Assembly (NCBI GenBank): GCA_951804945.1
Contig: OX638159.1
Location: 38,812,001-38,876,000 of the forward strand
Origin: Podarcis cretensis
Taxonomy: Eukaryota
Reading direction: 5' to 3'
DNA length: 64,000 nucleotides
Of this stretch, positions 1-63,342 are shown piece by piece. Within the stretch, counting starts at the first letter, position 1. Each line of letters starts with the position of its first letter. The notes under the pieces were generated by a model. That model saw only the letters and a list, made by a program, of their open reading frames with translations. It was not told the origin of the DNA and ran no database searches. The position numbers were made by a program, and so were the translations under genes.

Positions 1-336
1 TGAGTTACACCTCCTGGGTGGGAGATTGCTCCTAAACCCCTTTGCAGCTGTGGTGCACCACATGATACCAGTTAATAAAAGGACACCACTGTAGAGATAC
101 CCTTGTGCCATCTGTTTCATCTTTATGCCACACAAATTTGCCAATGCAAAGGGGAACAATGGGAAGGGCTAGGGGCATGTAGGAAAAGGAGCTAGGCTGA
201 CTTGGAATCTAGTTACAGATAGGTAGCCGTGTTGGTCTGCCATAGTCAAAACAAAAAAAATTCCTTCCAGTAGCACTTTAAAGACCAACTAAGTTAGTTC
301 TTGGTATGAGCTTTCGTGTGCATGCACACTTCTTCA

Positions 337-486
337 GGGGGTATCCCCTGTAAGGTTGAACAATCACTAGGGTTTTGTGTGTGAGTTTCAGTTGATGTTG
401 GAAGCTGAAGAGACAAAGGCATGACTTGCTCTGGGCTGGACTCCAAGCTTTGACTTGAAGCCTCCCTTGAAACCTAATGGGGAAGC
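337..486 (+). repeat. 150-bp direct copy of 1191-1340 inserted inside the PLE palindrome
   Basis: By-eye alignment gives one mismatch (CCTCCC vs CCTTCC). CTTCTTCAGG occurs at both junctions (329-338 and 486-495). Confidence 0.95.
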
Positions 487-493
487 TTCTTCA

Positions 494-533
494 GGTATCT
501 GAAGAAGTGTGCATGCACACGAAAGCTCATACC
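494..533 (+). ncRNA. Minimal type I hammerhead ribozyme (PLE-associated)
   Basis: GGTAT-CTGAAGA-A-GTGTGCATGCACAC-GAAA-GC-TC-ATACC: stem I GGTAT/ATACC, CUGANGA and GAAA cores, palindromic stem II, palindromic AGCU in place of stem III, UC cleavage site. Confidence 0.8.
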
Positions 534-884
534 AAGAACTAACTTAGTTGGTCTTTAAGGTGCTACTGGAAGGAATTTTTTTTTGTTTGGAATCTAGTGT
601 TTGATTAGGAATAAGTCTTGCCCCTTGATGAAGGAGCAAATGCCTGCAAAAGTAGTGATAGAAAATCAAACACTCCAGTTTAAGCCAATGGAGAGCCATG
701 ACTGATTGCCCCACATCTCAACAGAGAATTCCAACTCATGCTGCAACAAACCATGGCACACCAGATCGCCTGGTCTATTTCCATTCAGGAAGCTTATTCT
801 TAGAAGCCCTTCCCATTTGGATAAACGATGCATCTTTAAAGCATCTTGTTAGCTTGGCAAGTAAGTTGGGTGGTACTTGGTATG

Positions 885-1545
885 TTTGTTTTTCTTTGTT
901 TTTATTTATACCCCATCTTTCCTCACATAACTCATGGTGTTGTTCCCAGGTGGTCTACCACCCAGGCACTGTCTAGAGTCAGAGGTGTTTAGTATTGTCA
1001 TAGGTTTGAAGGGTCAGTCTGGAAGATACACATGGGTTCCCCCCCCAAAAAAAAACCTGTGTAGGTAGAGGCTTTCCTATAAGAAGAAACCAACCCAACC
1101 AGTTCCTTTGTTAAGGCAATGACCTTAGCCAGCCAGATTAGTACACTATTTACATTAGAAAGAAGTTGCCTTGCTGCCTTGGAGACAAATGGGGGTATCC
1201 CCTGTAAGGTTGAACAATCACTAGGGTTTTGTGTGTGAGTTTCAGTTGATGTTGGAAGCTGAAGAGACAAAGGCATGACTTGCTCTGGGCTGGACTCCAA
1301 GCTTTGACTTGAAGCCTTCCTTGAAACCTAATGGGGAAGCAAGATCTGTTGGAGAGTTGATGCTGTGAGTCCCTCCATCCTTTGCTCAGGTCGTAAAATA
1401 AAGCCATATATCCTAAAGGCATCACAGTCTCCACTGACCTTCATTCCAAGGAAGCTGAACCCTGGATGAGCAACTCAGAGATTGGAGTGCGTGCAAGGGC
1501 ATCAACAAGATTGTGGCACCCACTGCCTTTAGTCAGACCATGCTC
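885..1545 (-). mobile_element. Degenerate 5S-rRNA-derived SINE, split by the insertion at 996-1507
   Basis: ~943-995 (TTCCCAGGTGGTCTACCACCCAGGCACT...) resembles the reverse complement of 5S rRNA. TTTA-rich tail at 885-915. Similarity plausibly resumes after 1507. Confidence 0.4.
996..1507 (+). mobile_element. Putative solo LTR (~510 bp)
   Basis: TGT...ACA termini, AATAAA at 1397-1402, appears to interrupt a SINE. Flanks (AGTAT/AGATT) are not a clean TSD. Confidence 0.35.
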
Positions 1546-2214
1546 TGTTTTTGGGCTCGTTCCGATTTATTGCTCTTCCTCATACCAGAGCAAGGAGTAT
1601 TAAGCAGAGCATATTAAAAGGAAAGCTGTCTGCTGTCCACCACCCACTTATCCTCTGAGAATTAGCTTGGCCACTGATCCTGTTGCAGCACCTGTCTCTC
1701 GTTCTGCTTTACTGCTCTGGGCTGGGATTGTTGGAGACTAATAAGTCTCAGCTGACTCTAAGCTCTGTCAATTAACCTTTGTCTCTGCAGCACCATATCC
1801 ACGGGCTTCCTCCTTGAGTCAACACTATTGGAAAGCCTTTCTTAACATTGCTGAGAGATAAGACTCCCACACAAAAGTCACCATCTAATGACAGCAAGCC
1901 AGTGCATTATTCTTTAACACCTGACATTCCACGGTATGTCAAGAGATGACCAAAACATTTAAATATCCCATTCCAAGCTCCTCACAGTTTTCCTGGGATG
2001 ATCAAATGAAAGATTTCAGTTCTAAGGATCTCTTAACTTGGATGTTAGCAGCGGACAGTATTTCTGCAGCTCCCAAACTTTGCAGCACTTGCAGCTCTCC
2101 CTTTGATACAAAGGACCCTAGCAATTGCTGGGGGAAAAACAAAAAACCTATTAACTGTGTGTTTCCATAGGTTTGGAAGAACCTGAAAAATTGTATGCTG
2201 TCTGATAGGACTTT

Positions 2215-2838
2215 TGTTGTTGTTGTTGTTTAGTTGTTTAGCCGTGTCTGACTCTTCGTGACCCCATGGACCAGAGCACGCCAGGCACTTCTGTCTTCCA
2301 CTGCCTCCCGCAGTTTGGTCAAACTCATGCTGGTAGCTTCGAGAACACTGTCCAACCATCTCGTCCTCTGTCGTCCCCTTCTCCTTGTGCCCTCCATCTT
2401 TCCCAACATCAGGGTCTTTTCCAGGGAGTCTTCTCTTCTCATGAGGTGGCCAAAGTATTGGAGTCTCAGCTTCAGGATCTGTCCTTCCAGTGAGCACTCA
2501 GGGCTGATTTCCTGAAGAATGGATACGTTTGATCTTCTTGCAGTCCATGGGACTCTCAAGAGTCTCCTCCAGCACCATAATTCAAAAGCATCAATTCTTC
2601 GGCGATCAGCCTTCTTTATTGTCCAGCTCTCACTTCCATACATCACTACTGGGAAAACCATAGCTTTAACTATACAGACCTTTGTCGGCAAGGTGATGTC
2701 TCTGCTTTTTAAGATGCTGTCTAGGTTTGTCATTGCTTTTCTCCCAAGAAGCAGGCATCTTTTAATTTCGTGACTGCTGTCACCATCTGCAGTGATCATG
2801 GAGCCCAAGAAAGTAAAATCTCTCACTGCCTCCATTTT
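2215..2838 (-). mobile_element. Bov-B (RTE clade) LINE, 5'-truncated 3' end
   Basis: Open frame 2230-2835 (DAFELWCWRRLLRVPWTARRSN...YFGHLMRR...LEKTLMLGK) matches the Bov-B ORF C-terminus. (CAA)n tail. 12-bp TSD TGATAGGACTTT at 2203-2214 and 2839-2850. Confidence 0.95.
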
Positions 2839-3332
2839 TGATAGGACTTTAGCACATCCAAAACTAATCTGGTTACATGGAGCCCTCCCTCTCTATGATA
2901 CAACATACAATTTGGCTAGCTCGATAGCTTCAATTATTTAGCTTAATGCTCTTCAAAATCAGCATAATGCTTCTTTCTGTATTTTTATTGTTTGTCATTT
3001 TGTTTGTTATATTTGATTTGTGCCAATTTTTTAAAAAAACACAATCAAAACAAAACACATGACATACAAGTGTACATATGGTTGTATGTCTATGTTGTGG
3101 CTGTTGCCCGAGTTATTAATTCATTTAGCAGATCAAAGTACACTAAGCAGTTTGTAATCAGCACCCCGCAGGATTTGACATGCCACACAGAAACAAAAAT
3201 GAGCCTTGTCACAGAAACAAACAACTCAACAGGTTGCTGCAGATATTTGTGACTTTTTGGTTATTCCTGTATGGTACATGGGGCTGTTACTTGTAGGCAG
3301 CTGCTTACCATATCAATGCTCTTAGATGGACC

Positions 3333-3383
<51 letters not shown>

Positions 3384-3705
3384 TTTATACCCCGCCCATC
3401 TGGCTGGGTTTCCTCAGCCACTCTGGGCTGCTTCCAACAAAATATTAAAATACAATAGTCCTTCAGATATTTAAAGCTTCCCTAAACAGGGCTACCTTCA
3501 GATGTCTCCTAAAAGTCTGGTAGTTGTTTTTTCCTTTGACATCTGGTAGGAGGGTGTTCCACAGGACGGGTGCCCCTACCAAGAAGGCCCTCTGCCTGGT
3601 TCCCTGTAACTTGGCTTCTCGCAGTGAGGGAACCCCCAGAAGGCCCTTGGCGCTGGACTTCAGTGTCTGGGCAGAACGATGGGGGTGGAGACGCTCCTTC
3701 AGGTT
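3333..3705 (-). mobile_element. L2-clade LINE 3' fragment with (AAT)n microsatellite at its tail (3333-3376)
   Basis: TTTATACCCCGCCC...GTTCCACAG...AAGGCCCT pattern typical of squamate L2 3' ends, followed by a simple-repeat tail. Confidence 0.7.
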
Positions 3706-5174
3706 TACTGTAATGTAATAGGTGCTTTACCCTATACTGCAAGGATGGGAACCTCAGGGTCCAGGGGCTGGATATGGCCTTCCAGGTAGAGACCTGTCTG
3801 GCCCTCAAAACTCTGCCAGGCCACACAGCTCACTGGCCATGCTTTGCACCTCAAATATTTTTGTGTGGCTGGATTGTGGCCTCTCCAGAGTTTAAAACAG
3901 GGGACCCCTGCCACCCCTATCTAGAGATGCCAAGGGTTGAACTTGGAACCTTCTGTATGCAAAGCAGATGGTCTACCACTGAGCCTTTCCACTATGGAAG
4001 ATAAGGCTGTCAATAGGTATTTTTTACGATGACCTAATTAACCTCCAAGGTGTGTCTCAGGAAGAGGAGGAAAAGGGCGCTCCAGTCTTCTTGTCCTGCT
4101 GTAGGCTCCTCGGAAATACCTGACTAGCCACTATTAAAAATGGGGCACTGGACTAGAGGGCTCTTGGGTCCACAGCTCTTCATAACATAAATTCGTAAGA
4201 GTTTCCCAGTATCTCCTCCACTTTCTTGTATGTAGTAGATATGATATGTGGTGAAACAACTGTCTATTTTTGGCCTCCCCTTTTCCAGACAGTGACCCAT
4301 AGTGACAGGGAAATGAATTAATTATTACAGAAATGCAGCCTTGGTTATTGTTAGAGGCAGACTAGGGATTACCTTTCTTTTTAAAAAATAATAATAGGAT
4401 GTTAGCCTATATGTAGCATAGGTTTTCAGTTCATTCCAGAGGCATGAGCAATTGGAGCGCAGATGGGATTAGCAGCCAGCTAATCTCTTGCAGTGTTGGT
4501 TAGCTTTATACAGCACAAGTTGAGAAAATTATACTTAGAAAATAAAAAGGTCCTTCTTTTATATAGAACTAGTAGCACCACAAGGAAGTCCAGCAATGCC
4601 ACTGTCTCAAGTTTCTACCTCTCCAGCATATTTTCATATCATTGCTATTATTCCATGTACATTTTTGTTTTTGTTCTAAACCTAATTGCTGCAGGATGTT
4701 AAGCACAGGTTGTTGCCTAGGGAACTTGGGCTCTGAGGTGATGGACAAATGGCAATAAGAAAGAAAGAAGAGTCAGACAAGCATCTGATTAATGGGCTAC
4801 CTTTCGCTGTCATGGATCAGTCAAAGCTAAGCATTTCATTGAGAGAATTCAGCATTTCCTCCTTGTAAGTAAAAAGCTTAAAATTCTGGTTAGTGCTTGA
4901 CAAATGTCCTCACATACTGGCTCATATAATGTGTGCAGACATGGTGACCATTGCTATAGCATCATGATAGGGTAGGACTTATGATAAAGAGGTCTCATGC
5001 ATCTTTAACTGAAAATTTCGGCAGCTGCAGCTTGCCTTCTGTAGCACAATGAAAAAATGCAGGAGCCTGTTCTCCATTCCATCTTGCACCATGGTTATGA
5101 AACTGCTGCCACCTGTACCCATAATTGTTCATTCACATCTTACGCACATCTGAGGACACACCTGATGATGACAT

Positions 5175-8700: not shown

Positions 8701-11201
8701 GAAAGTAAAAGTTCTGTTGCTCAGGATTTTCATGAGGGTGGCTGTTATGAGTTGCAAATACAGCCTAAACAATTATAGAGTGTGTCATCGCCGTTTTTCT
8801 AATCCTGGGGCAAGGTGCGGCAAGCTCTGCTAAGTTTGTTCCTCCTTGCACTAATGCATTTCTGTGTTATCCTTTGGGGTGCATACATTCAAAGAGCAGC
8901 GCATAGATCACAGTACAAGGTGCGAGAAGAGCAGGGCAGGGAATAATCAAGCAGCAGTGTGGTGATGTAGACTTTTTTTTTTGCTGTGTCAGCTCCAGGC
9001 ACCAAGGATCAGGTCCCTCAGGAGATGCAATGAAGTCTTCAGATCCAAAACATCCAGGCCTCTTTCCTCTGCCTGCTGATGTGGGACATTACTGCAGCCA
9101 AGCCAACAATTCATGTTTTGCTATATAGGTATATGAAGCAGCTAAAGCTCACAGAGCTCTCCTGTAAAATTTGCTAGAGAGAACTATATGAGATAGTTAT
9201 TTGACTACTACATTGGCTAGAAGCTGTAACAGCTTTTTTCCTGGGCATCTGTCTCTTTCTTCATCATGCTTCTAAGCTGACCGCACATGCATGTCTGAGC
9301 TCTGCAGCTCAGAGAGCATTTTTGAACTTACATTTTGTACATTTGTAACTTACATAGCGGTTATCAACCTGCCTTTATTTTGCTATTGTAATTGTTCCCT
9401 CAAGGCCTAAATTATGTAAGTAAATACTAGTTTTAGTTCTTCACAAAACAGTGTGTGATTATTATTTTTAAGGGGGTGAGGGGAAATACCAAGGAAAATT
9501 CAGTCTGCCTTAAAGCATCCTGGATTGTTGTGCTAGAAGTTTAAATCAACATTGTCTTAGCTTCCAAGTTGAAGTTGCAAAGGATGGTCCTATGCTGATC
9601 TCACTAATGTGAGCAAGGAAGGATAATAACTAAGCAATATATCTTCTCCTACAGCAGCCACGGGTAGTTTCGTGCCCACTTGGGCACAGCTTGGTTCTCC
9701 CACCACTGTTCTAGACTGCCATGTTAGCTAGCAGGCAAGAACTCTTCTCTGTCAGTAGATCTGCTTGGCACAACAGGTTCCTTGGCTTGTAAGCAGATGA
9801 GGTCAGAGTTCATGTTCCTTGGAATAGATGTCCTCAGAGATGTCCCATTTCCCCAAAGATGGAGTCCTAATTAGGGGCTTTCCTGGACTGGCTGTTCTGG
9901 CATATATTCCAGAAGAGAAAGAGAGAGCTGATGAGGATGCAGTGAGCAGCATACTGGAGTGTCAGCTTGCTACTCCCTGGGCTTTTCCAATGGTGGTTAG
10001 GGGAGATCTGTTACATGTACTGTGCACAGAGCTTACCTGAGTCTATGTCCTTTCTGTCTTACAGCTCTTAAGATGTCCAGCCATCAAATCAGAACATAAA
10101 TTTAATTGAAAGGCTTGAAACCAAATAGGTGACTCAAGTTTCACACTGGGAGAGCAGAGTGCAGCATTTCAGCAAGAAGAGTGGTAGAAGATAAACAGAA
10201 AAGCCTACTCTTTATGCTGCTTTCCCATGACAGTGTTGGTATAGTGAAGCATCAGGGAAATATTGTATCTATTCACCACATTTAAATCCTACCTTTCTTC
10301 CAAGGAGCTCAAGGCAGGATGCATAGTCTGCCTCTGCTTTTTATCCTTGCCATCTGTGTAGTAGGTTAAGATCAGGTATACCGTATGTAATAACTCGCCC
10401 AAGGTCACACAGTGAATTTTATAACTGAGGGGGCATTTGACTCTGAGTCTCCCCAGTCATAGCCTGATCCTCCAATTCATTCATTTAATTCATTTATTTG
10501 ATTTCCTAAAGATTTCCATGGCAGTGCCACACTGCTATGCCATACAGACTGTGCCACATCACACCATGCCGGCTCTCACATTGCAGCAGGTCTGGCAAGT
10601 TTCTATCAAGAACTCCAGTATCTTCAGGCTGACTAGTGTGTAGGGATGGGGGGAATTCATCTGACTTGGCACACCTACTGAACTTCTACTTTCTGAAACA
10701 ATTTGTGAACTGACAACCAGCCACCCTTCAAAATTCACACAAGCACCCCTCCGCACCATCCCAACACATATCCCTGCAACTATACAACCTCCCCCCTGTA
10801 AACACACCCTGTATTCTCCTGTACACAGAATGCAACCACACCACATGCTCTTGCAGCCACAAATGTCATGGAACTACATATGCAAAATGTTTTAGGTGCT
10901 TCATAAAGCAAAACTCCAGGCTCTCCATATGGATCTGGGTCTGAAAGACCAAGGGAAAATGTGGGTACATGGAGGGTAGGTTATTAGCAAGCACAGTTTG
11001 TGACATTCCACCACATCATTGCTGATCATCTGGTACATCTGTTTAAGCTTCCAATTTTCCAGCTCTTGGGAGTCTGAGCGAACATGAAATAGCCTTAACT
11101 CTGATCTTAAACTGGCAGGGTTTTTGAAATCACTGGTTTTTATTTAAAACAAAAAAAATTCCTTCCAGTAGCACCTTAAAGACCAACTAAGTTAGTTCTT
11201 G

Positions 11202-11239
11202 GTATGAGCTTTCGTGTGCATGCACACTTCTTCAGATAC
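11202..11239 (-). ncRNA. Minimal type I hammerhead ribozyme (minus-strand copy)
   Basis: Reverse complement reads GTAT-CTGAAGA-A-GTGTGCATGCACAC-GAAA-GC-TC-ATAC. Confidence 0.8.
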
Positions 11240-11553
11240 ACTGAAACAGAAGTTTCCAGACCCTTCTATATAGTGAGAAGGTGGGGAGGGGTATTACTCA
11301 GAAGGGTGGTGGGAATGGGTGATTGGCAGATAGCTGTGATGAGCCTGTTGACGACTCTTAACGACTGCAATAGGTCTTACAGGAAAAAGCAAGGGGTGAG
11401 AAGCTTTTTCCTGTAAGACCTATTACAGTCGTTAAGAGTCGTCAACAGGCTCATCACAGCTATCTGCCAATCACCCATTCCCACCACCCTTCTGAGTAAT
11501 ACCCCTCCCCACCTTCTCACTATATAGAAGGGTCTGGAAACTTCTGTTTCAGT

Positions 11554-11591
11554 GTATCTGAAGAAGTGTGCATGCACACGAAAGCTCATAC
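11554..11591 (+). ncRNA. Minimal type I hammerhead ribozyme (plus-strand copy)
   Basis: GTAT-CTGAAGA-A-GTGTGCATGCACAC-GAAA-GC-TC-ATAC: intact catalytic core and 4-bp stem I. Confidence 0.8.
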
Positions 11592-12469
11592 CAAGAACTA
11601 ACTTAGTTGGTCTTTAAGGTGCTACTGGAAGGAATTTTTTTTTGTTTTGACTATGGCAGACCAACACGGCTACCTATCTGTAACTGGTTTTTATTTATTA
11701 ACTTCATCCAAACACATCAGCAAAACTCCACTGAATTCTTTCTGGCCTTACAAGGAAGTATTTAGGACTGCCGCCTTATAGTCAGTAAATATTTCCTACT
11801 CATTAAAGCAGGGAAAGAAAGAGGATCTCAGATTTCCTTAACATCTGAGAGCAACATGTGGCATTTGAATGCTGGGTAGCTTGAGGGATTGATTAATGTG
11901 CTGTTAATAAAATTTATTATACTTTAAGCTGCAAGTGATTTAAAGGTTGTTACTATAGGCACTTCCTAAATAGAGAATAACAATGAATATATTTATGGAT
12001 GGGAGCAGGGAGGCTGGTGTGTGACAGCTCAGAGCAAAAATCAGTCATCCTTGCTAATAGCCAAACTTTCCACTGGTTCATCAGCAGAATGCTAGTTATG
12101 GGCAAACTTTGAAGATGCGATTATGGACTGAGTTTGCCAGATAACTCATCATCATAAGATCCAGTAGTTCACTATTTCATGCAAAATGGGTTCATTTAAA
12201 TTAGTAGATAACTCACCAAGGAAACAAGACAAATTTTTATCACTGACAAAGGAAACATCCCACTTTGAAATCCATGTATTTCCTGAAGAAGCATACATGC
12301 TACCTGCTATAGCAATTGGTTTGCAACTAAATCGAGCCGTCTTGCAACCCAGGAGTACAATCCAAAGCTTTGAGCTTTGCAGCCAATATGCCTTTCACAC
12401 CACAGAACTTCATCTACACAGAAACAAGAGACTTATTTCTCTTGTCTCTCTTTGGACAACCACTTGGCC

Positions 12470-17933: not shown

Positions 17934-18543
17934 TTGTTGTTTAGTTGTTTAGTCGTGTCCGACTCTTCGTGACCCCATGGACCAGAGCACGCCAGGCACT
18001 CCTGTCTTCCACTGCCTCCCGCAGTTTGGTCAGACTCATGTTTGTAGCTTCGAGAACACTGTCCAACCATCTCATCCTCTGTCATCCCCTTCTCTTTGTG
18101 CCCTCCATCTTTCCCAACACCAGGGTCTTTTCCAGGGAGTCTTGCCTTCTCATGAGGTGGCCAAAGTATTGGAGCCTCAGCTTCACGATCTGTCCTTACA
18201 GAGAGCACTCAGGGCTGATTTCCTTAAGAATGGATAGGTTTGATCTTCTTGCAATCCATGGGACTCTCAAGAGTCTCCTCCAGCACCATAATTCAAAAGC
18301 ATCAATTCTTCGGCAATCAGCCTTCTTTATTGTCCAGCTCTCACTTCCATACATCACTACTGGGAAAACCATAGCTTTAACTATATGGACCTTTGTTGGC
18401 AAGGTGATGTCTCTGCTTTTTAAGATGCTGTCTAGGTTTGTTTTGTCATTGCTTTTCTCCCAAGAAGCAGGTGTCTTTTAGTTTCGTGACTGCTGTCACC
18501 ATCTGCAGTGATCATGGAGCCCAAGAAAGTAAAATCTCTCACT
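17934..18543 (-). mobile_element. Bov-B LINE, 5'-truncated and degenerate
   Basis: Colinear with 2215-2838; ORF fragment 18196-18402; carries an indel and a stop; complex 5' junction. Confidence 0.95.
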
Positions 18544-25682: not shown

Positions 25683-25835
25683 ATGGCGCTGTGGTCTAAA
25701 CCACCAAAACTCTTGGGCTTCCTGATCGGAAGGTCGGCGGTTCAAATCCGTGCAACGGGGTGAGCTCCCGTCACTCTGTCCCAGCTCTCGCCAACCTAGC
25801 AGTTTGAAAGCACGAGTAGATAAATAGGTACTGCT
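25683..25835 (+). mobile_element. Sauria SINE 5' half
   Basis: GGCGCTGTGG A-box, GGTTCAAATCC B-box, CCAACCTAGCAGTT, GTAGATAAATAGGTAC. Confidence 0.85.
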
Positions 25836-26928: not shown

Positions 26929-27281
26929 GGGTAAAGGTACCCCTGCCTGTACGGGCCAGTCTTGCCAGACTCTAGGGTTGTGCGCTCATCTCACTCTATA
27001 GGCCGGGAGCCAGCACTGTCCGCAGACACTTCTGGGTCACGTGGCCAGCGTGACAAGCTGCATCTGGCGAGCCAGCACAGCACATGGAACGCCGTTTACG
27101 TTCCCGCTGGTAAGCGGTCCCTATTTATCTACTTGCACCCAGGGGTGCTTTCGAACTGCTAGATTGGCAGGCGCTGGGACCGAATGATGGGAGCGCACCC
27201 CGCCACGGGGATTCGAACCGCCGACCATGTGATCAGCAAGTCCTAGGAGCTGGGTTTTACCCACAGTGCCACTCGCGTCCC
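26929..27281 (-). mobile_element. Sauria SINE, full length, divergent subfamily
   Basis: GGGACGCG 5' end on the minus strand, ACCTTT tail, TSD CTTATTATTATTAA at 26915-26928 and 27281-27294. Confidence 0.92.
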
Positions 27282-33454: not shown

Positions 33455-33545
33455 GGTATCTGAATAAGTGTGCATGCACACGAAAGCTCATACCAATAAC
33501 AAACTTAGTTGGTCTCTATGGTGCTACTGGAAGGATTTTTATTAT
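33455..33545 (+). mobile_element. Older Penelope-like pLTR fragment with mutated hammerhead (CTGAATA)
   Basis: Aligns to 494-580 with several substitutions. Confidence 0.8.
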
Positions 33546-42529: not shown

Positions 42530-43229
42530 AGGCTCAGTTATAGCCCGACTACTGTTATTCCTGTGCTGATAACCTTCAGGTTGGATTACTGCAGTGCAGT
42601 GGGACTACCCTTGAGGCTGGTCTGGAAGTTGCAACTGGTGCAAAATGCGGCAGCTCGGCTGCTCACAGGATACAGCCTCCATTTTATGCCACTGCCAAAA
42701 GAATTGCATTGAATGCCAGTTAGCTACTCGAATAAGTTCATGGCTCTGGTCCTGGTATATAAAGTCCTATACATTTGGGACTGAAAAATTATCTATCCTC
42801 TTATAGACTATGTAGTCAATCACTGGAGGTGGGAGCCTCCTGCAGATATTATATTTGCAGCAGATCCATTCTGTAAATTGGTATCGCTGCGGCAGGAAGG
42901 TAAATGGTGTTTCTGTGCGCTCTGGTTTCCGTCATGGTGTTCCGTTGCGCCAGAAGCAGTTTAGTCATGCTGGCCACATGACCCGGAAAGCTGTCTGTGG
43001 ACAAACACTGGCTCCCTCAGCAATCTCGGTTGCATTTTCAGCACTTACTGCAGACCTTCCTCTTCCAACAAGCCTTCCCAGTAGAGATCTTTCGCTTTCC
43101 CAGTCTGTATTTGTGTTGGAATTGCTCTTGAGAGGTTTGAGATGGTTTTGATTGTTTTATCACTTGTGTGTTTGCTGCCCTGGGCTACTTTGGGAGGAAG
43201 GATGGGATAGAAATGTAACAATCAATCAG

Positions 43230-44367: not shown

Positions 44368-44732
44368 CAGGTCATGCTGTGGTCTAAACTGAGCCTCTTG
44401 GGCTTGCCAATCAGAAGGTTGGCAATTCGAATCCGCACAACAGGGTGAGCTCCCATTGCTCTGCCCCAGCTCCTGCCAACCTAGCAGTTCGAAAGCATGC
44501 CAGTGCAAGTAGATAAATAGGTACCGCTGTGGCAGGAAGGTGAACGGTGTTTCCGTGCGCTCTGGCTTCTGTCACAGTGTTCTGTTGTGCCAGAAGCGGT
44601 TTAGTCATGCTGGCCACATGACCTGGAAAGCTGTCTGTAGACAAACACCGGCTCCCTCAGCCTGAAAGCAAGATGAGCGCCGCAATACCATAGCCGCTTA
44701 ACCGTCCAGGGGTCCTTTGCCTTTACCTTTTA
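44368..44732 (+). mobile_element. Sauria SINE
   Basis: Conserved core and ACCTTT tail; TSD AGGCATTCAG at 44358-44367 and 44733-44742. Confidence 0.92.
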
Positions 44733-47107: not shown

Positions 47108-48081
47108 ATGAGCCAAACAGGGACAGCCGGAGAGATGGAGCAACCAGCTGCAGTGCGGAGTCTGGTCGAGAGGAACCGAGACTTGGAGCAGCATGTAGCT
47201 ATCCTGATGGCACGGCTGGATGAAAGATGGGCTCAGGATGCACAGGTCAGACCCACCCCCATCGCAAGGAAGGTACCGGGGCTGGTACACAAGTTTGGTG
47301 GGAAGCCCCAGGACTACAATGCTTTCTGAATAGAAGTGCAGTACGCTTTGGAACTGCTGAAAGATGACTTTGCTGATGACGGGGAGAGGGTGGCTTACAT
47401 TGTGGGGCATCTACAGGATGGGGCACGCGAATGGATCAGGCCCCTAATGGCGACGCAAAATGATGCCTTGAAGGACCGTAAGAAATTCTTCCAGGGGATG
47501 GAGGCGATGTTCTCCAGCGAGGTGGAGCAAAGTGTGACTCGGCGAGAACTGATGGGGTGCAAGCAGGGGGGCCAGTCCGTCAGAAACTACTGGTCGCGTT
47601 TTGCGATGTTAGTCCACAGACTCGGGTGGGATCTGGACTCTGAACCGATACAAATGTTGTTTGAGGAGGGTCTGTCCCCCGAAGTGAAAGACGAGTTGTC
47701 CCGAGCGCCCCGGCCACGGTCGATGGATGAGCTCACAAAGGCTGTGCTGGCGATCGGCGTACGCCAGGAAGCGCGGGCTCAGGAGAAGCGGGAAATGAGA
47801 GGGGAACATTGCCATGACTACCGCATTCCTGAGATACCGAGGGAGGCTTCCCAGGCGGCGGAGCCAATGGAAGTTGATGGCGCGCGCGAGAGAGAGAGGT
47901 TTCAAACTCCGGTGAAGGTCATAAAAGGGAGGGAAAGGAGTGGAAAACTACCAAGAAGTGTTTCCTCTGTCAACGACCAGGACATTTTGCTAAGGTCTGC
48001 CCTCAACGAAAAGCCTGGCAAGGGATGGTGGGGGCTGCTGGCCACGACGAGAAGGGGGAGGAAGGGCAGGCGCAGGGAAAC
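47108..48081 (+). pseudogene. gag: Retrotransposon gag, disrupted
   Basis: ORFs 47108-47329 and 47336 onward share a frame, split by a TGA at 47327. Capsid-like HLQDGAREW / KQGGQSVRNY / FEEGLSPEVKDEL / EPMEVD motifs. CFLCQRPGHFAKVC knuckle at 47959-48000 in a shifted frame. Confidence 0.9.
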
Positions 48082-48119
48082 GACAACGCGTGGCTGCCAA
48101 TCAGCAGGGGCAGCAGCCA
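48075..48119 (+). promoter_or_regulatory. -1 programmed ribosomal frameshift signal
   Basis: G GGA AAC in phase with the gag knuckle frame; a -1 shift enters the protease frame; downstream stem TGGCTGC (48091-48097) / GCAGCCA (48113-48119). Confidence 0.75.
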
Positions 48120-51010
48120 GGCCAGCAACCAATAGAAGTGTCCCAGCCTGACCCCCCCAAGGCAGCTATAGCCATAGAAGTGGTGCTAGAACTCCCGAAT
48201 GGGCACCCTGTCAAAGTCAAGGGACTGTTGGATTCGGGCAGCTCGTGTAATTTCTTCAGCAGAGACTTCGCTCTGGAGACCAACTCCACCTGTTGCCTCT
48301 AGATTTTCCCTTGCAGGTGACCACCATCGATGGCAGGGAACTTCTGGGGAGGGGGGGAAGTGACACACCAGACCCCGCCAATGCGAATGAGGGTTTCCAG
48401 GCACACAGAGACCATTGCCTTTCACGTGGCCACACTGGCAGGACCCCCAATAATACAGGGGATGAGCTGGCTGGCACTGCATGATCCAGTAGTGTCATGG
48501 CATCAGCGGTCAGTCACCTTTGGGTCAGCTTACTGCTTAGGACACTGTCTGGGAGGGGAGAACCCAAGAATGACGGTGGCCAGGGTGGCTGGGCTGGCTG
48601 TGGAACAAAAAGGGGAGGTGCCACCACAATATGCTGACCTGAAGGAGGTCTTCAGCGAGAGGGAGGCAGATAGACTACCCCCACACAGGCCCTTTGACTG
48701 CCAAATCAACTTACTCCCAGGGGCCCAGTTACCAGTGGGTAAGCTGTATGCCATGTCCGACCGGGAGATACAGGAGTTGCGGCAGTTTATTGACAAGAAC
48801 CTGAAGAGGGGGTTCATAAGGGAATCAAAGGCGGTGGGGGGCAGTCCGGTGTTCTTTGTGGACAAAAAAGAGACTAATCAGCCCAGATTAGTCGTGGATT
48901 ACCGGGCCTTAAACCTGGTGTCAGAACCCGTGACCTTCCCAATGCCCAGGATTGACATTTTAACATGGGTGAGGCAGGGGAAGATTTTTACCAAGCTGGA
49001 CCTCAGGGGAGCATACAATTTGATTAGGATAAGGGAGGGGGACGAATGGAAAACTACCATGTTCAGCCCCCTGGGGGCTTTTGAGTACTTAGTCATGCCA
49101 TTTGGATTACAATCGGGGTCCGCCTGCTTTCAAGCATTCATGCACCACGAGTTGGGGCCCCTGCTGTACAAGAATTGTGTAGCCTTTTTGGATGATGTCT
49201 TAATCTATTTGGACAATGAGAAGCAACACGTCAGGGACGTCAGGGAAGTGCTACAGAGACTGCAGAAGCATCAGTTGTGGGTCAAGCTGGAAAAATGCCA
49301 ATTTCACACCAGAGAGGTCGAGTTTCTGGGGTACAAGTTGTCATACAAGAGCCTAGCTATGGACCCAGACAAGGTGAAGGTAGTGCTGGAATGGAAAGCC
49401 CCCAAAACCCGGAAGGATGTGCAGAGGTTCTTAGGGTTCAGCAACTTCTACAGGAAGTGCATAAAGAACTTCGCTAACTTGACAGCGGCCATCATAGATT
49501 GTCTCAGTAGCAAAAAGAAGTTCGCGTGGACAGAAAGTGCCCAGCAATCCTTTGAAAGGCTGAAGAAGGCGTTCGCTCCGGAACAGCAGCTCCTGCACGT
49601 TGATCTGGAGAAGCCCACGAGACTGGAGACGGACGCGTCCAATCGAGCCGTTGGAGCGGTCCTTTTGCAGCCCAGGGCCAAGCAGGGCTGGAGGCCATGT
49701 GCCTTTTTCTCAAGGAAGCTGAGCAAGTCAGAGCAAAACTATACAGTATATGACCGAGAACTGCTTGCGATCTATGCGTCGTTTCGGCAATGGAGACATC
49801 TGCTGATAGGGGCGCGGCACAAGATCTGGGTTTGTACTGACCACAAGAACTTGGAATATTGGCGGACCACGCGAGTGCTCAACCAGAGACAGATTCGATG
49901 GGCCCAGGAGTTCTCCAAGTTTTCTTTCGAGATCAGATACGTGCCGGGGGAGGAAAATGTAAGAGCAGATGCTCTCTCCCGGAAACCGGAGTACATGGAA
50001 GGAGAGGGACCACCAGAGATCCGACACCTGTTTCCTGAGGACCGGTGGGTGTGGGGGGGAGCGTTGGTTGGGGAACGAGAACTGGCAGGGCTTATTAGAG
50101 ACGACGCGTTCGCTCAAGCGAAAATCAGGGAACTCCGGGACGGAAGGGAAGACCATGGAGGGTTTGAGGAAAAGGAAGGACTACTGTACTATAAGGGGGC
50201 ACTGTATGTACCGGGGGAGACCTTAAACAACTCCATGACAACCCAACAGCTGGGCACTTTGGACAGCACAAGACCATGTTGCTTGTCACCAGGCAGTTCT
50301 GGTGGCCAAAGGTGAGGGAAGATGTACGGGAATATGTACGTGGGTGCGACCGATGCCAGAGGGCAAAGGGGGAGAGGGCTGCCCCCGCAGGGTTACTGGA
50401 ACCCTTTCCTACACTGGGAAGGCCCTGGAAGGTGGTGTCCATTGATTTTATGACAGATTTGCTCAAGTCAAGGGGGAAGACAGCAGTCATGGTAGTAGTC
50501 GATCTACTGACAAAAATGTGCCATTTCATAGCTTGCTCACACGCGGGGACGGCAGAGGAGACAGCCAGGTTGTTTGTGGATCACATTTTCAGACTGCATG
50601 GGACTCCCTCGAGAGTAATCTCGGATCGCGGGAAACAATTTACTTCCAGGTTCTGGAGGAAGCTCATGAGCTTGCTACAGGTAGAGGTGGGCTTCTCGAC
50701 GGCGAGGCACCCCGAAACCAACGGACAAGCAGAAAGAGCGAACAGTATACTCCAGCAATACCTACGCTGTTATGTCAGCAAGAGACAGAACGATTGGGTA
50801 GCGAAACTAGCTTTGGCTGAATTTGCGTACAATAACGCTGAACATGTGTCCACAGGAATGAGCCCGTTCATGGCCAATTATGGGTATCACCCCAGGGCCT
50901 TCCCGGGGAGGGGGGAGGAAGGATGGAGTGTACCCACGGCTGAGCAGTTTGTAGAAGAAATGGAAGCCTTGCACCAGCAACTCAAGATGAACTTGGAGCG
51001 GGCCAAGAAA
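48075..51010 (+). pseudogene. pol: Retrotransposon pol (protease, RT, RNase H, integrase), frameshifted
   Basis: LLDSG protease; VVDYRALN, KLDLRGAY, MPFGL and FLDD in RT; ETDAS RNase H; HDNPTAGH...CDRC and SIDF / ISDRG / GQAER integrase motifs. Frameshifts near 48290, 48350 and 50220. Confidence 0.95.
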
Positions 51011-53102
51011 GTTACATATATGAACTATTTCCAGGTATAATTCAGAGATTTTTGAATTAATTCAGTTCACCTGATTTAGTTCATTTCAAGCACTATACAC
51101 AGATATATATAGATAACAATATTTTGTTAAGGTCTGGCTGTTTTCTTTCTTTTTTAACTAAACCTTGACTCCCAAATTTCAATGCCTAAAAAATTACAGA
51201 GCCAATATTTTGTTTAATGAAAAATAAAATCAGGGACAGGAAAGCCATTGTGATCCAATGACCAGCTGTCTCAAAAATTGTATCATTCATATACTCTGTA
51301 ATAACAACCTTTCAAATAAAACTTGAAATAGTAATGTACCTGACTAACACAGCAGCTTGCAGGACTTTTCCAGCTGTGTTACGTACAATTGCTTTTCCAT
51401 TAATAATATTGTACACCTGATGCCCTCATATGAGTAGAATTGTGTTTGTTATTTTCTCTGTTGTGTACAGTGAAAGACATTCCTATTCTCTTTTTCCTCC
51501 CCTTTAGGGGACTGGCCTCTCGCCACCCTTTCTAATATCTTCAAAGTATTTATGCATACCTTCCAACGTGATGTAGCCAAAAATTGGGATGCCAACTTCT
51601 GAGGTGGCACTCCCACACAAGTCATGTGACTTGTGCAAAATTATGGCCCTGAAAAAGGGCTTTGGGGGGGCACGGCGCCCTAAAATGAGAATTTTGGAGT
51701 GCTTTGTGAAATTGCTGCCCCAAAAAAGATTTTTTTGGGGGGTGAAATCATGGCCCCAAATTGCGTGAGATCATGGCACCAAAATGGCCACCGTACTCTT
51801 GCACAAGAAAATGAGATGTCCCGGGACAGTTGAGGGGTATGCATATGTCAGTGGTCGGTGAGGCTAGAGACAAAAGTGGGCCAAGCAACAAATGTAAATT
51901 TTATCTCTGTACAGTTGGCTAGTTTCCCCACACACCCCTCTCTCTATCCTCCATCTAAACAAGCAGGAGACACCAGAGTCCAAGGGCAAATTCCGTCCAG
52001 GCAAAAGCCCTTGGGATGTGAAGCAGGCCCAGTCAGGGCAAGGCTAGGTGTGTGGCCTGGAGAGAGTTCTGAGGGCTAGACAGGGAGGCCTGAAGGCCAC
52101 ATTCAGTCCCCGGGCGTGATGGTCCACCACCATTGCTCTTGGCCTTCCCTGTCCCTCATCGGACTAATGTCCTGTAAATAGGCAGCTTGGTGGCCTTCAT
52201 TGTACACATCTCCAGCATCTGTCTCCCTCAAGGTGTCTCCAAGCGGCAGAGTCAACCTAGCAGAAGAAGTGAAGATTATGGGTCATTCCACATGCTGTTC
52301 ATGCGGCCCCATAGAATTGTCCCTGAAGTGAAAAGCCAAAGACTCTCCACAGAAGAAGTGGAGGTTTGGAGCTCTTCCTAGGATGCCTCAGACCTTGCCT
52401 TTAAACATCTTTTGTGGGCTGTCATTCTGCTTTCCTGTTCCCCCTTAAAAAGGCACAAGAATGGGATAGATTTGATCACGCGAATGAAGAGCGTTTGGTT
52501 TCTTCTGCACTTTGAAGAGCTCACATTTTCTTCCTCTCTCTTCCCTCAGCCACAACACAAGGACTCTCCCTGGCCCTCTACAACGCACTGGAATAAAATA
52601 AAAGATCATCTCATTTGAAACAAGGCCCCATGAAATGAAACTTCAAAAAGATAAGAAAATCATGCAGGGTTTAATAAAAAAAAGCCCGGCAAGATATCAG
52701 AGTTTGTTTTATTGCACATAAATCAGCAGCAATAATTTAAATTGGGATTAATGCTCTGTATCATTTCTTTCATGTACATCCCTAGATCTCTGCGCTATTA
52801 TGCAGCTCCTGTCTCTTTAAATTCATGGAGTTTGAGAAAAGTTCCCTCAGTGTCATCCTGATGATAAACAAGATTTATAACTGGCTGTGAGTCAGAGGAA
52901 AAGGAGAGCTGATGAAGAAAAAAGAGGATTTCTTTCTTTCCGGATTGGAGCAATGAAATTAAAATGAATAGGAAGGGAGGCTGAGATTAGCAGCACAGTC
53001 ATTCTGCATCGTGTCTTCTATTGCTTACGTCTCTGCTGGGCTGGACTAAATCAACTAGGGTGAATAGTTCTCCCCACCAAACTTCCTTCTTACCCACCCA
53101 GC

Positions 53103-62832: not shown

Positions 62833-63342
62833 CTAAGACAGCATCTTAAAAAGCAGAGACATCTCCTTGCCAACAAAGGTTCGTATAGTTAAAGCTATGG
62901 TTTTCCCAGTAGTGATGTATGGAAGTGAGAGCTGGACCATAAAGAAGGCTGATCGCCAAAGAATTGATGCTTTTGAATTATGGTGCTGGAGGAGACTCTT
63001 GAGAGTCCCATGGACTGCAAGAAGATCAAACGTATCCATTCTTCAGGAAATCAGCCCTGAGTGCTCACTGGAAGGACAGATCATGAAGCTGAGGCTCCAA
63101 TACTTTGGCCACCTCATGACAAGAGAAGACTCCCTGGACAAGACCCTGATGTTGGGAAAGATGGAGGGCACAAGGAGAAGGGGATGACAGAGGACGAGAT
63201 GGTTGGACGGTGTTCTCGAAGCTACAAACATGAGTTTGACCAAACTGTGGGAGGCAGTAGCAGACAGGAGTGCCTGGCGTGCTCTGGTCCATGGGGTCAT
63301 GAAGAGTCGGACACGACTAAACGACTAAACAACAACAACAAC
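62833..63342 (+). mobile_element. Bov-B LINE, 5'-truncated
   Basis: ORF 62867-63187 homologous to 2230-2835, with a premature TGA; (CAA)n tail. Confidence 0.95.

Follow-up and report, generated by a model that had tools for sequence, protein, structure and literature searches.

A young Penelope-like palindrome in Podarcis cretensis with a templated copy of local DNA at its junction

How a copy of neighbouring host DNA comes to reside at the centre of a palindromic retroelement is the question raised by a locus close to the start of the window investigated here, a term by which we refer to the whole analysed stretch of 64,000 nucleotides from Podarcis cretensis. On sequence comparison, window positions 337-486 match positions 1191-1340 in 149 of 150 letters, in the same orientation and at a distance of 854 bp, with C464 of the captured copy and T1318 of the donor as sole mismatch. 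The locus contains a real templated insertion of local origin and recent date, located where the arms of a Penelope-like palindrome meet, and while this kind of event is known from L1, from R2 and from human palindromes, the host element is new. Comparisons to published systems refer throughout to passages of the cited papers.

Anatomy of the insertion and its family

The insertion is flanked by a target-site duplication of 12 nt, whose left (202-213) and right (587-598) copies are identical on the plus strand, and the insertion size between these two copies of the target sequence is 385 bp. The last three nucleotides of the left copy (211-213) double as the first three of the element, where a tail of about 36 nt (211-246, minus strand) begins. 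This tail is found in the left arm only, an asymmetry that recurs in a second family copy at 11132-11697 and that matches the published one-sided tail (PMC8557442, PMC11167929). The left arm is an antisense fragment of a pseudo-LTR (pLTR; 214-337, minus strand) with 98% identity to the second copy at 11682-11558, and its T277 is shared neither with that copy nor with the other arm. The right arm, a tail-less sense pLTR fragment (495-588, plus strand), starts at the recurrent end of the family at 494/495. Within the two arms, the inverted segments 247-337 and 499-589 are 97% complementary and differ by one substitution (T277/C559) and by an A-run of eight versus a T-run of nine.

The captured copy (337-486, plus strand) is bracketed by an exact duplication of 10 nt at the tip (329-338 = 486-495, first copy on the plus strand), which shows no extension beyond these letters. 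Its 150 nt overlap with the element by two nucleotides on the left (337-338, which also equal the donor start) and by one on the right (486). This leaves 147 nt (339-485) as letters new to the element and, compared to a plain palindrome, a net increase of 157 bp, upon whose removal two 91-bp arms around a 4-nt loop remain as a palindrome of 186 bp. Neither arm is short of sequence relative to the duplicated tip. The segment 486-494 (plus strand), a second copy of the last 9 nt of the left arm, pairs with 499-507 and is consistent with the 9-nt fold-back extension of the right arm proposed below. The ends of the insert are identical to those of the donor, and it carries neither a tail nor the poly(A) or element-derived 3' end of a processed retrocopy. 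In folding predictions, the 200-600 strand is far below shuffled sequences (z = -17). The first-pass annotation had described the 149/150 copy, the inverted repeat within its target-site duplication and the repeated sequence bracketing the insert, and all three are found at exact coordinates. Its central claim, that the inversion junction of a Penelope-like element contains a templated copy of local DNA, is supported.

The insertion has the anatomy of an inverted pLTR insertion of a Penelope-like element, a membership that rests on anatomical features because the copies are pLTR fragments in which no open reading frame is present. No telomerase-like reverse transcriptase or GIY-YIG endonuclease domain was found in the 62 of 79 long frames of the window scanned against Pfam. 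Among the features of such elements, inverted 5'-truncated pLTR copies form terminal inverted repeats in two of the three family copies in the window, a one-ended tail within the published range of 30-40 nt (PMC8557442, PMC11167929) is confined to the left arm here and is also seen in the second copy, and the short duplication of 12 nt is single at an empty site found in two sequencing runs (X1 and X2). The second copy (11132-11697, minus strand) is a longer palindrome with a 15-nt duplication and no local insert, whose 12-nt loop (11391-11402) has no other match within the window. The third (33455-33543, plus strand) is a single, more diverged arm that begins at the equivalent of position 494. 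Family motifs returned zero matches in metagenome, prokaryote-genome and viral contigs. In the sequencing run X15, the summed contig depth of the arms is about 10^5-10^6, compared to about 17 for single-copy DNA.

Inverted pLTR copies and the one-sided tail have been described in the passages covered of three studies (PMC8557442, PMC3846280, PMC11167929), and the first of these calls the route to the inverted structures of Penelope-like elements undefined. With the known inverted pLTR insertions of endonuclease-bearing Penelope-like elements, our locus shares the head-to-head pLTR fragments, the one-ended tail of 30-40 nt, the short duplication and a minimal hammerhead, whereas it differs in the lack of an open reading frame and in the 147 nt of neighbouring host DNA at the junction. 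Compared to the captures described in rotifers, where the spacers are longer and a local donor is unnamed in the passages covered (PMC3846280), the captured sequence here is a 150-bp local copy. In both palindromic copies, the final 3 nt of the duplication equal the first 3 nt of the tailed arm (211-213 and 11685-11683), and the tail-less arm has one to two T in common with the other end of the duplication. These end overlaps suggest short pairing between target and RNA at both priming sites, unlike the initiation described as homology-free in the covered part of one study (PMC11167929).

Empty and filled sites in sequencing runs

Public runs were searched with window 150-660, which is found in 19 of the 24 listed, and four runs (X1, X2, X15 and X17) were compared, as contigs, with window 1-1190. 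The ancestral site is empty. In X1 and X2, a single contig each proceeds from 1-201 to 587-1190 and then through the 150 bp, present once, with the duplication single and with far more than 31 letters on either side of the empty-site join. The event is also young, since a comparison of the empty X1 with the window haplotype shows, over 955 nt, a single substitution (95% upper bound 0.6%) besides a gap of 2 nt, whereas X2 is about 3% diverged. Since the donor of X1 reads C, which is also the letter kept by the insert at 464, and X2 shows no recorded difference at this position, T1318 is likely the derived letter.

The filled site is represented by X15. Here, the left flank leads into the element in a piece comprising 1-234 (depth 17.8), the segment shared by insert and donor (337-463) shows double depth (35), and the right arm leads into the flank in a piece comprising 562-1190 (depth 16.4). 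The transition from the insert into the right arm is contained in a piece (434-512, depth 17.8) with 53 letters of insert and 26 letters of arm, the latter below the bar of 31 letters per side set for bridging. The contig graph splits at 463/464, as the C/T difference predicts. Although no piece among those listed crosses the left junction at 337, this junction appears supported in X15 and X17, where the contigs break and the depth is doubled. In X17, which is distinct at a C-run near 1038, a piece comprising 1-235 leads from the flank into the element and the break at 337 is found with a summed depth of 172.7 compared to 107.1 and 69.5, whereas X1 and X2 do not break at this position. No piece of X17 crosses either right-hand junction among those listed, beyond which the run holds 51,226 further pieces. 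Its contig containing 337-486 extends by 12 further letters that do not belong to the arm, and the pattern in this run would be expected from a deletion between the two 150-bp copies (487-1340), but equally from graph simplification.

Two runs of one sample (X16 and X18) hold 0.88 and 0.77 of the searched words, and junction words therefore drop out by run type. The word share alone is no genotype, with 0.70-0.77 expected for an empty allele and values of 0.77-0.79 found in X1, X17 and X18. Depth amounts to tens to a few hundreds on the insert compared to about 10^5-10^6 on the arms, and the donor is single-copy. The 150 bp is single-copy flank and not part of the element, and its single presence at the empty site leads us to reject the view, raised at first pass as a way in which its reading could fail, that it is a normal component of the family. 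An assembly artefact, the other such way, is unlikely, with the insert backed in contigs of public runs and its junction with the right arm (434-512) found at flank depth.

Origin of the head-to-head join and the captured copy

The loop letters at 495-498 belong to the right arm because they are the reverse complement of the natural continuation of the element after 337, as seen in the second family copy. Since the tail is confined to the left arm and the loop displays right-arm polarity, the palindrome likely consists of two separately primed cDNAs, one per nick, that were joined head to head. A single fold-back of a tailed cDNA would leave the opposite loop letters and was rejected. In the covered passages on a purified Penelope-like protein, the enzyme is reported to cut both strands and to extend each of them, with synthesis beginning at two sites of the RNA between which the tail is located (PMC11167929). 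Other genomic copies agree in that the head-to-head join is variable, with left ends at 232-331 linked to 494 or 495 in 11 of the 15 joints listed (of 354) and with fillers of 1-24 letters among the 12 listed (of 359).

The recurrent family start at 494/495 sits 33 nt past a TATA-like motif in the second copy (near 11241), and this fixed end may be the transcript start. The G at 494 differs from the upstream T of the element itself and could be a base added opposite the RNA cap. A far-reaching generalization, which we consider speculative and rather unlikely, would hold that in this very high-copy reptile family every palindrome unites two cDNAs that were primed independently, that one of the two is a run-off product of a capped transcript which starts at the pLTR promoter, and that the joins recurrently capture DNA from up to about 1 kb away. 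If true, the palindrome tips would record, like fossils and across the whole genome, the way in which Penelope elements complete their integration, and they would steadily give rise to small local duplications.

As for the captured copy, we favour its acquisition at integration, where the 150 bp of flank would have been added by error-prone end joining while the two cDNAs were being joined, and to which we assign a probability of about 0.5. In this process, the enzyme of the element would nick both strands 12 nt apart and prime one cDNA at each nick, the first, tailed cDNA at the top-strand nick giving rise to the left arm and the second, tail-less one at the bottom-strand nick to the right arm. 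The right-hand cDNA would stop at the recurrent 494/495 and gain 9 nt by folding back or by pairing with the other cDNA, before its extended 3' end would switch, on 1 nt of homology, to the flank about 740 bp away (donor position 1340). Copying of 150 nt would then proceed towards the break, from 1340 to 1191, and the end of the copy would connect with the left cDNA at G337 through 1-2 nt of homology, followed by fill-in, with either polymerase theta or the reverse transcriptase of the element as copying enzyme. Read along the bottom strand, the locus indeed displays the right arm up to the stop, 9 self-complementary nucleotides, a 1-nt switch at 1340, and then 1191 followed by G337. The insert is a copy from near the junction with its donor intact, as is characteristic of templated insertions, and the homology in register is 1 nt at one junction and 1-2 nt at the other, in addition to a 6-nt match that is offset by three G. 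Capture at integration, when the two 3' ends would have been free at these positions, is preferred because it needs a single event, because the time available was short, because the break at 337 is found in both carrier runs (X15 and X17) and because the arms are intact.

Related events have been described for other retrotransposons. During L1 integration, 22 templated insertions were reported, mostly shorter than 250 bp and typically within 15 bp of the site, from a set that comprises 3,598 insertions according to a legend (10.1101/2024.08.27.596794), and a second study describes, in the part covered, three templated insertions at L1, for which its authors consider copying by the enzyme of the element or by host factors and do not decide between the two (PMC11702581). 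Our locus resembles these cases in the presence of a short nearby genomic copy within a new retrotransposon insertion, and it resembles L1 twin priming in the union of two primed cDNAs by end joining. In contrast to L1, both cDNAs copy the same segment of the RNA, which results in a palindrome, the donor is separated from the target-site duplication by 592-742 bp, the two cDNAs have the insert between them, and the event is germline. In R2 transgenes, the ends of cDNAs can start further synthesis on cDNA or on rDNA close by ahead of the join, and these 'snap-back' junctions are similar to our locus in that the 3' end of a cDNA primes on itself or on nearby target DNA prior to joining, although R2 involves one cDNA, whereas our locus shows two, with a fold-back followed by a flank copy between them (PMC11371274).

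Several observations run counter to capture at integration. By analogy to the L1 cases cited, where templates are typically found within 15 bp, a distance of 600-750 bp would be unusual, and in X17 the right-hand junction is absent from the pieces listed and the letters that follow 337-486 are not those of the arm. A limit on the model is that contigs cannot reveal a palindrome-only allele at this locus. The model would also leave the 6-nt match between donor and tip to chance, unless the tip had been pre-formed on the top strand.

This match, the 6-mer GGTATC, is common to the donor start and to 494-499, as had been noted at first pass, but its proposed role as a simple priming microhomology is not supported, since the homology in register is limited to 1-2 nt. 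The five G of the donor are all retained at the junction, whereas a plain join through the 6-mer would have kept three fewer, and a plain 6-nt microhomology join was rejected on these three extra G. Sharing of 6 nt with the 14-nt tip is found for 1603 of 125,306 10-mers of the window (1.3%), and this exact 6-mer in 80 (0.06%). As a trace of mechanism the match is suggestive, and it would fit only by chance or if the copied strand had annealed, with a bulge of three bases, to the end bearing the tip.

The latter route leads to the strongest rival of capture at integration, in which a finished, near-perfect palindrome of 186 bp with its 4-nt loop would have been broken later at the tip, as hairpin or cruciform, and repaired by microhomology-primed local copying involving polymerase theta or MMBIR, with the 10-nt duplication originating from a staggered opening or a fold-back. 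We regard this scenario as plausible but of lesser probability. It would better account for the 6-nt match, via annealing of the copied strand to the tip-bearing end with a bulge of three C, and it agrees with the restoration of two 91-bp arms and a 4-nt loop upon removal of 157 bp. There is also a precedent in human Xq27.1, where a palindrome of 180 bp has repeatedly gained templated insertions near its centre, with 1 and 2 bp of homology in one case (PMC6489244, PMC7999016). This palindrome resembles our locus in size, in the position of the insertions near the centre and in the 1-2 bp of junction homology, but its inserts are tens to hundreds of kb long (58-404 kb in the titles and abstracts covered), are of distant origin and entered a standing palindrome, whereas the insert described here is 150 bp long and local (PMC6489244). 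Later breakage would further require two events within the short time defined by the similarity to the empty haplotype, and the signs of the insert at 337 in both carrier runs count against it. Breaks at palindrome centres usually delete sequence, and nothing has been deleted from either arm. Integration and later breakage share nearly the same intermediate and differ in timing, and sequence does not separate them. Thus the two mechanisms put forward at first pass, a template switch of the reverse transcriptase during the inversion and the later repair of a cut tip, are both still live, whereas the single inversion or fold-back step that they presuppose gives way to two cDNAs, as indicated by tail and loop polarity.

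Improbable, in our view, is a second retrotransposition-like event, in which an endonuclease would have cut the existing tip with a stagger of 10-14 nt and a local plus-strand transcript would have been reverse-transcribed into the cut, with a target-site duplication as the result. At 10 nt (14 nt when counting the 6-mer), the duplication at the tip is indeed close to the 12 and 15 nt of the family, and host sequence captured by Penelope elements is found between their pLTRs in a rotifer (PMC3846280), but the insert contains neither poly(A) nor tail nor element sequence, the tip is not A+T-rich, unlike the targets preferred in vitro (PMC11167929), and no gene was found near the donor, with none of the three long frames tested in 1-1440 matching Pfam. 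Hardly any weight is left for an artefact of assembly or library at the hairpin, for even though 150 bp coincides with a common read length, no listed piece reaches the 31-letter bar at either insert junction and X15 may be the assembled individual, the junction contig of X15 is at flank depth, the graph fork at 463/464 fits the C/T difference and X17, with its different C-run, likewise breaks at 337 with summed depth where X1 and X2 do not.

The locus offers a clean recent example, with an empty allele, in which an end-to-end join of two cDNAs is favoured by the tail and by the polarity of the loop, and it illustrates that such a Penelope junction can take up local DNA. As a single locus it is an anecdote whose value is that of a pointer. 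No local templated insert at a Penelope inversion junction was described in the titles and abstract beginnings listed by searches aimed at Penelope elements, in a library with few subscription papers. In light of the arm depth of about 10^5-10^6 compared to about 17, the tips contained in a single long-read assembly would suffice for a decision between integration and breakage.

The hammerhead motif and the surrounding window

A minimal type I hammerhead motif is located on the plus strand at 494-533. By inspection and folding, it comprises a conserved core (499-505), a stem I of 4-5 bp (494-498/529-533), a long stem II (507-520) that is preceded by the unpaired A506 and that starts with a G-C pair, and, following 521-524, a self-complementary minimal stem III (524-527), with a predicted cut after 528. 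These are features of the minimal hammerheads described in Penelope-like elements (PMC4209133), while a search of window 1-5000 against Rfam gave no hammerhead match at E up to 5. In the predicted fold of the isolated segment 494-540, stem I has a probability of 0.97 and stem II of 0.99. For 494-598 the probability of stem I decreases to 0.32, and each of the five folds containing 486-493 leaves it at only 0.00-0.11, as the core is then paired by 486-494 or by the left arm. The hammerhead copy on the minus strand has no stem I partner. At this locus, the motif is thus predicted not to fold for cleavage in its context, where a partner copy would be needed, and an active monomeric ribozyme was rejected, as the core is predicted to be paired. 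The fusion of host DNA to a self-cleaving RNA that the first-pass annotation envisaged is left unsupported, given this predicted loss of stem I and the account of a lone minimal hammerhead without detectable cleavage in vitro in the passages covered of a study that also mentions paired minimal hammerheads, located on opposite strands at distances of 100-700 bp (PMC4209133). A function is indicated neither for the insert nor for the ribozyme.

Elsewhere in the window, the Pfam scan of 62 of the 79 frames of at least 95 aa, which short exons would escape, yielded four matches, three of them in Ty3/Gypsy frames and one below the cut-off. The three separate frames encode gag, a reverse transcriptase with RNase H, and an integrase of a Ty3/Gypsy-type LTR retrotransposon at 47330-51040. 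A repeat of 500-610 bp, which we take to be a squamate SINE or LINE end, is present in three copies with 95% identity (2216-2827, 17934-18543 and 62836-63342). A tRNA-like match on the minus strand (3922-3993), whose 31.8 bits are just over the Rfam gathering score, is possibly the head of a SINE. A direct repeat of 148 bp (42874-43021 and 44514-44661) shows 89% identity at a spacing of 1.64 kb, and the segments 25712-25835 and 27113-27246 constitute an older inverted pair with 75% identity.
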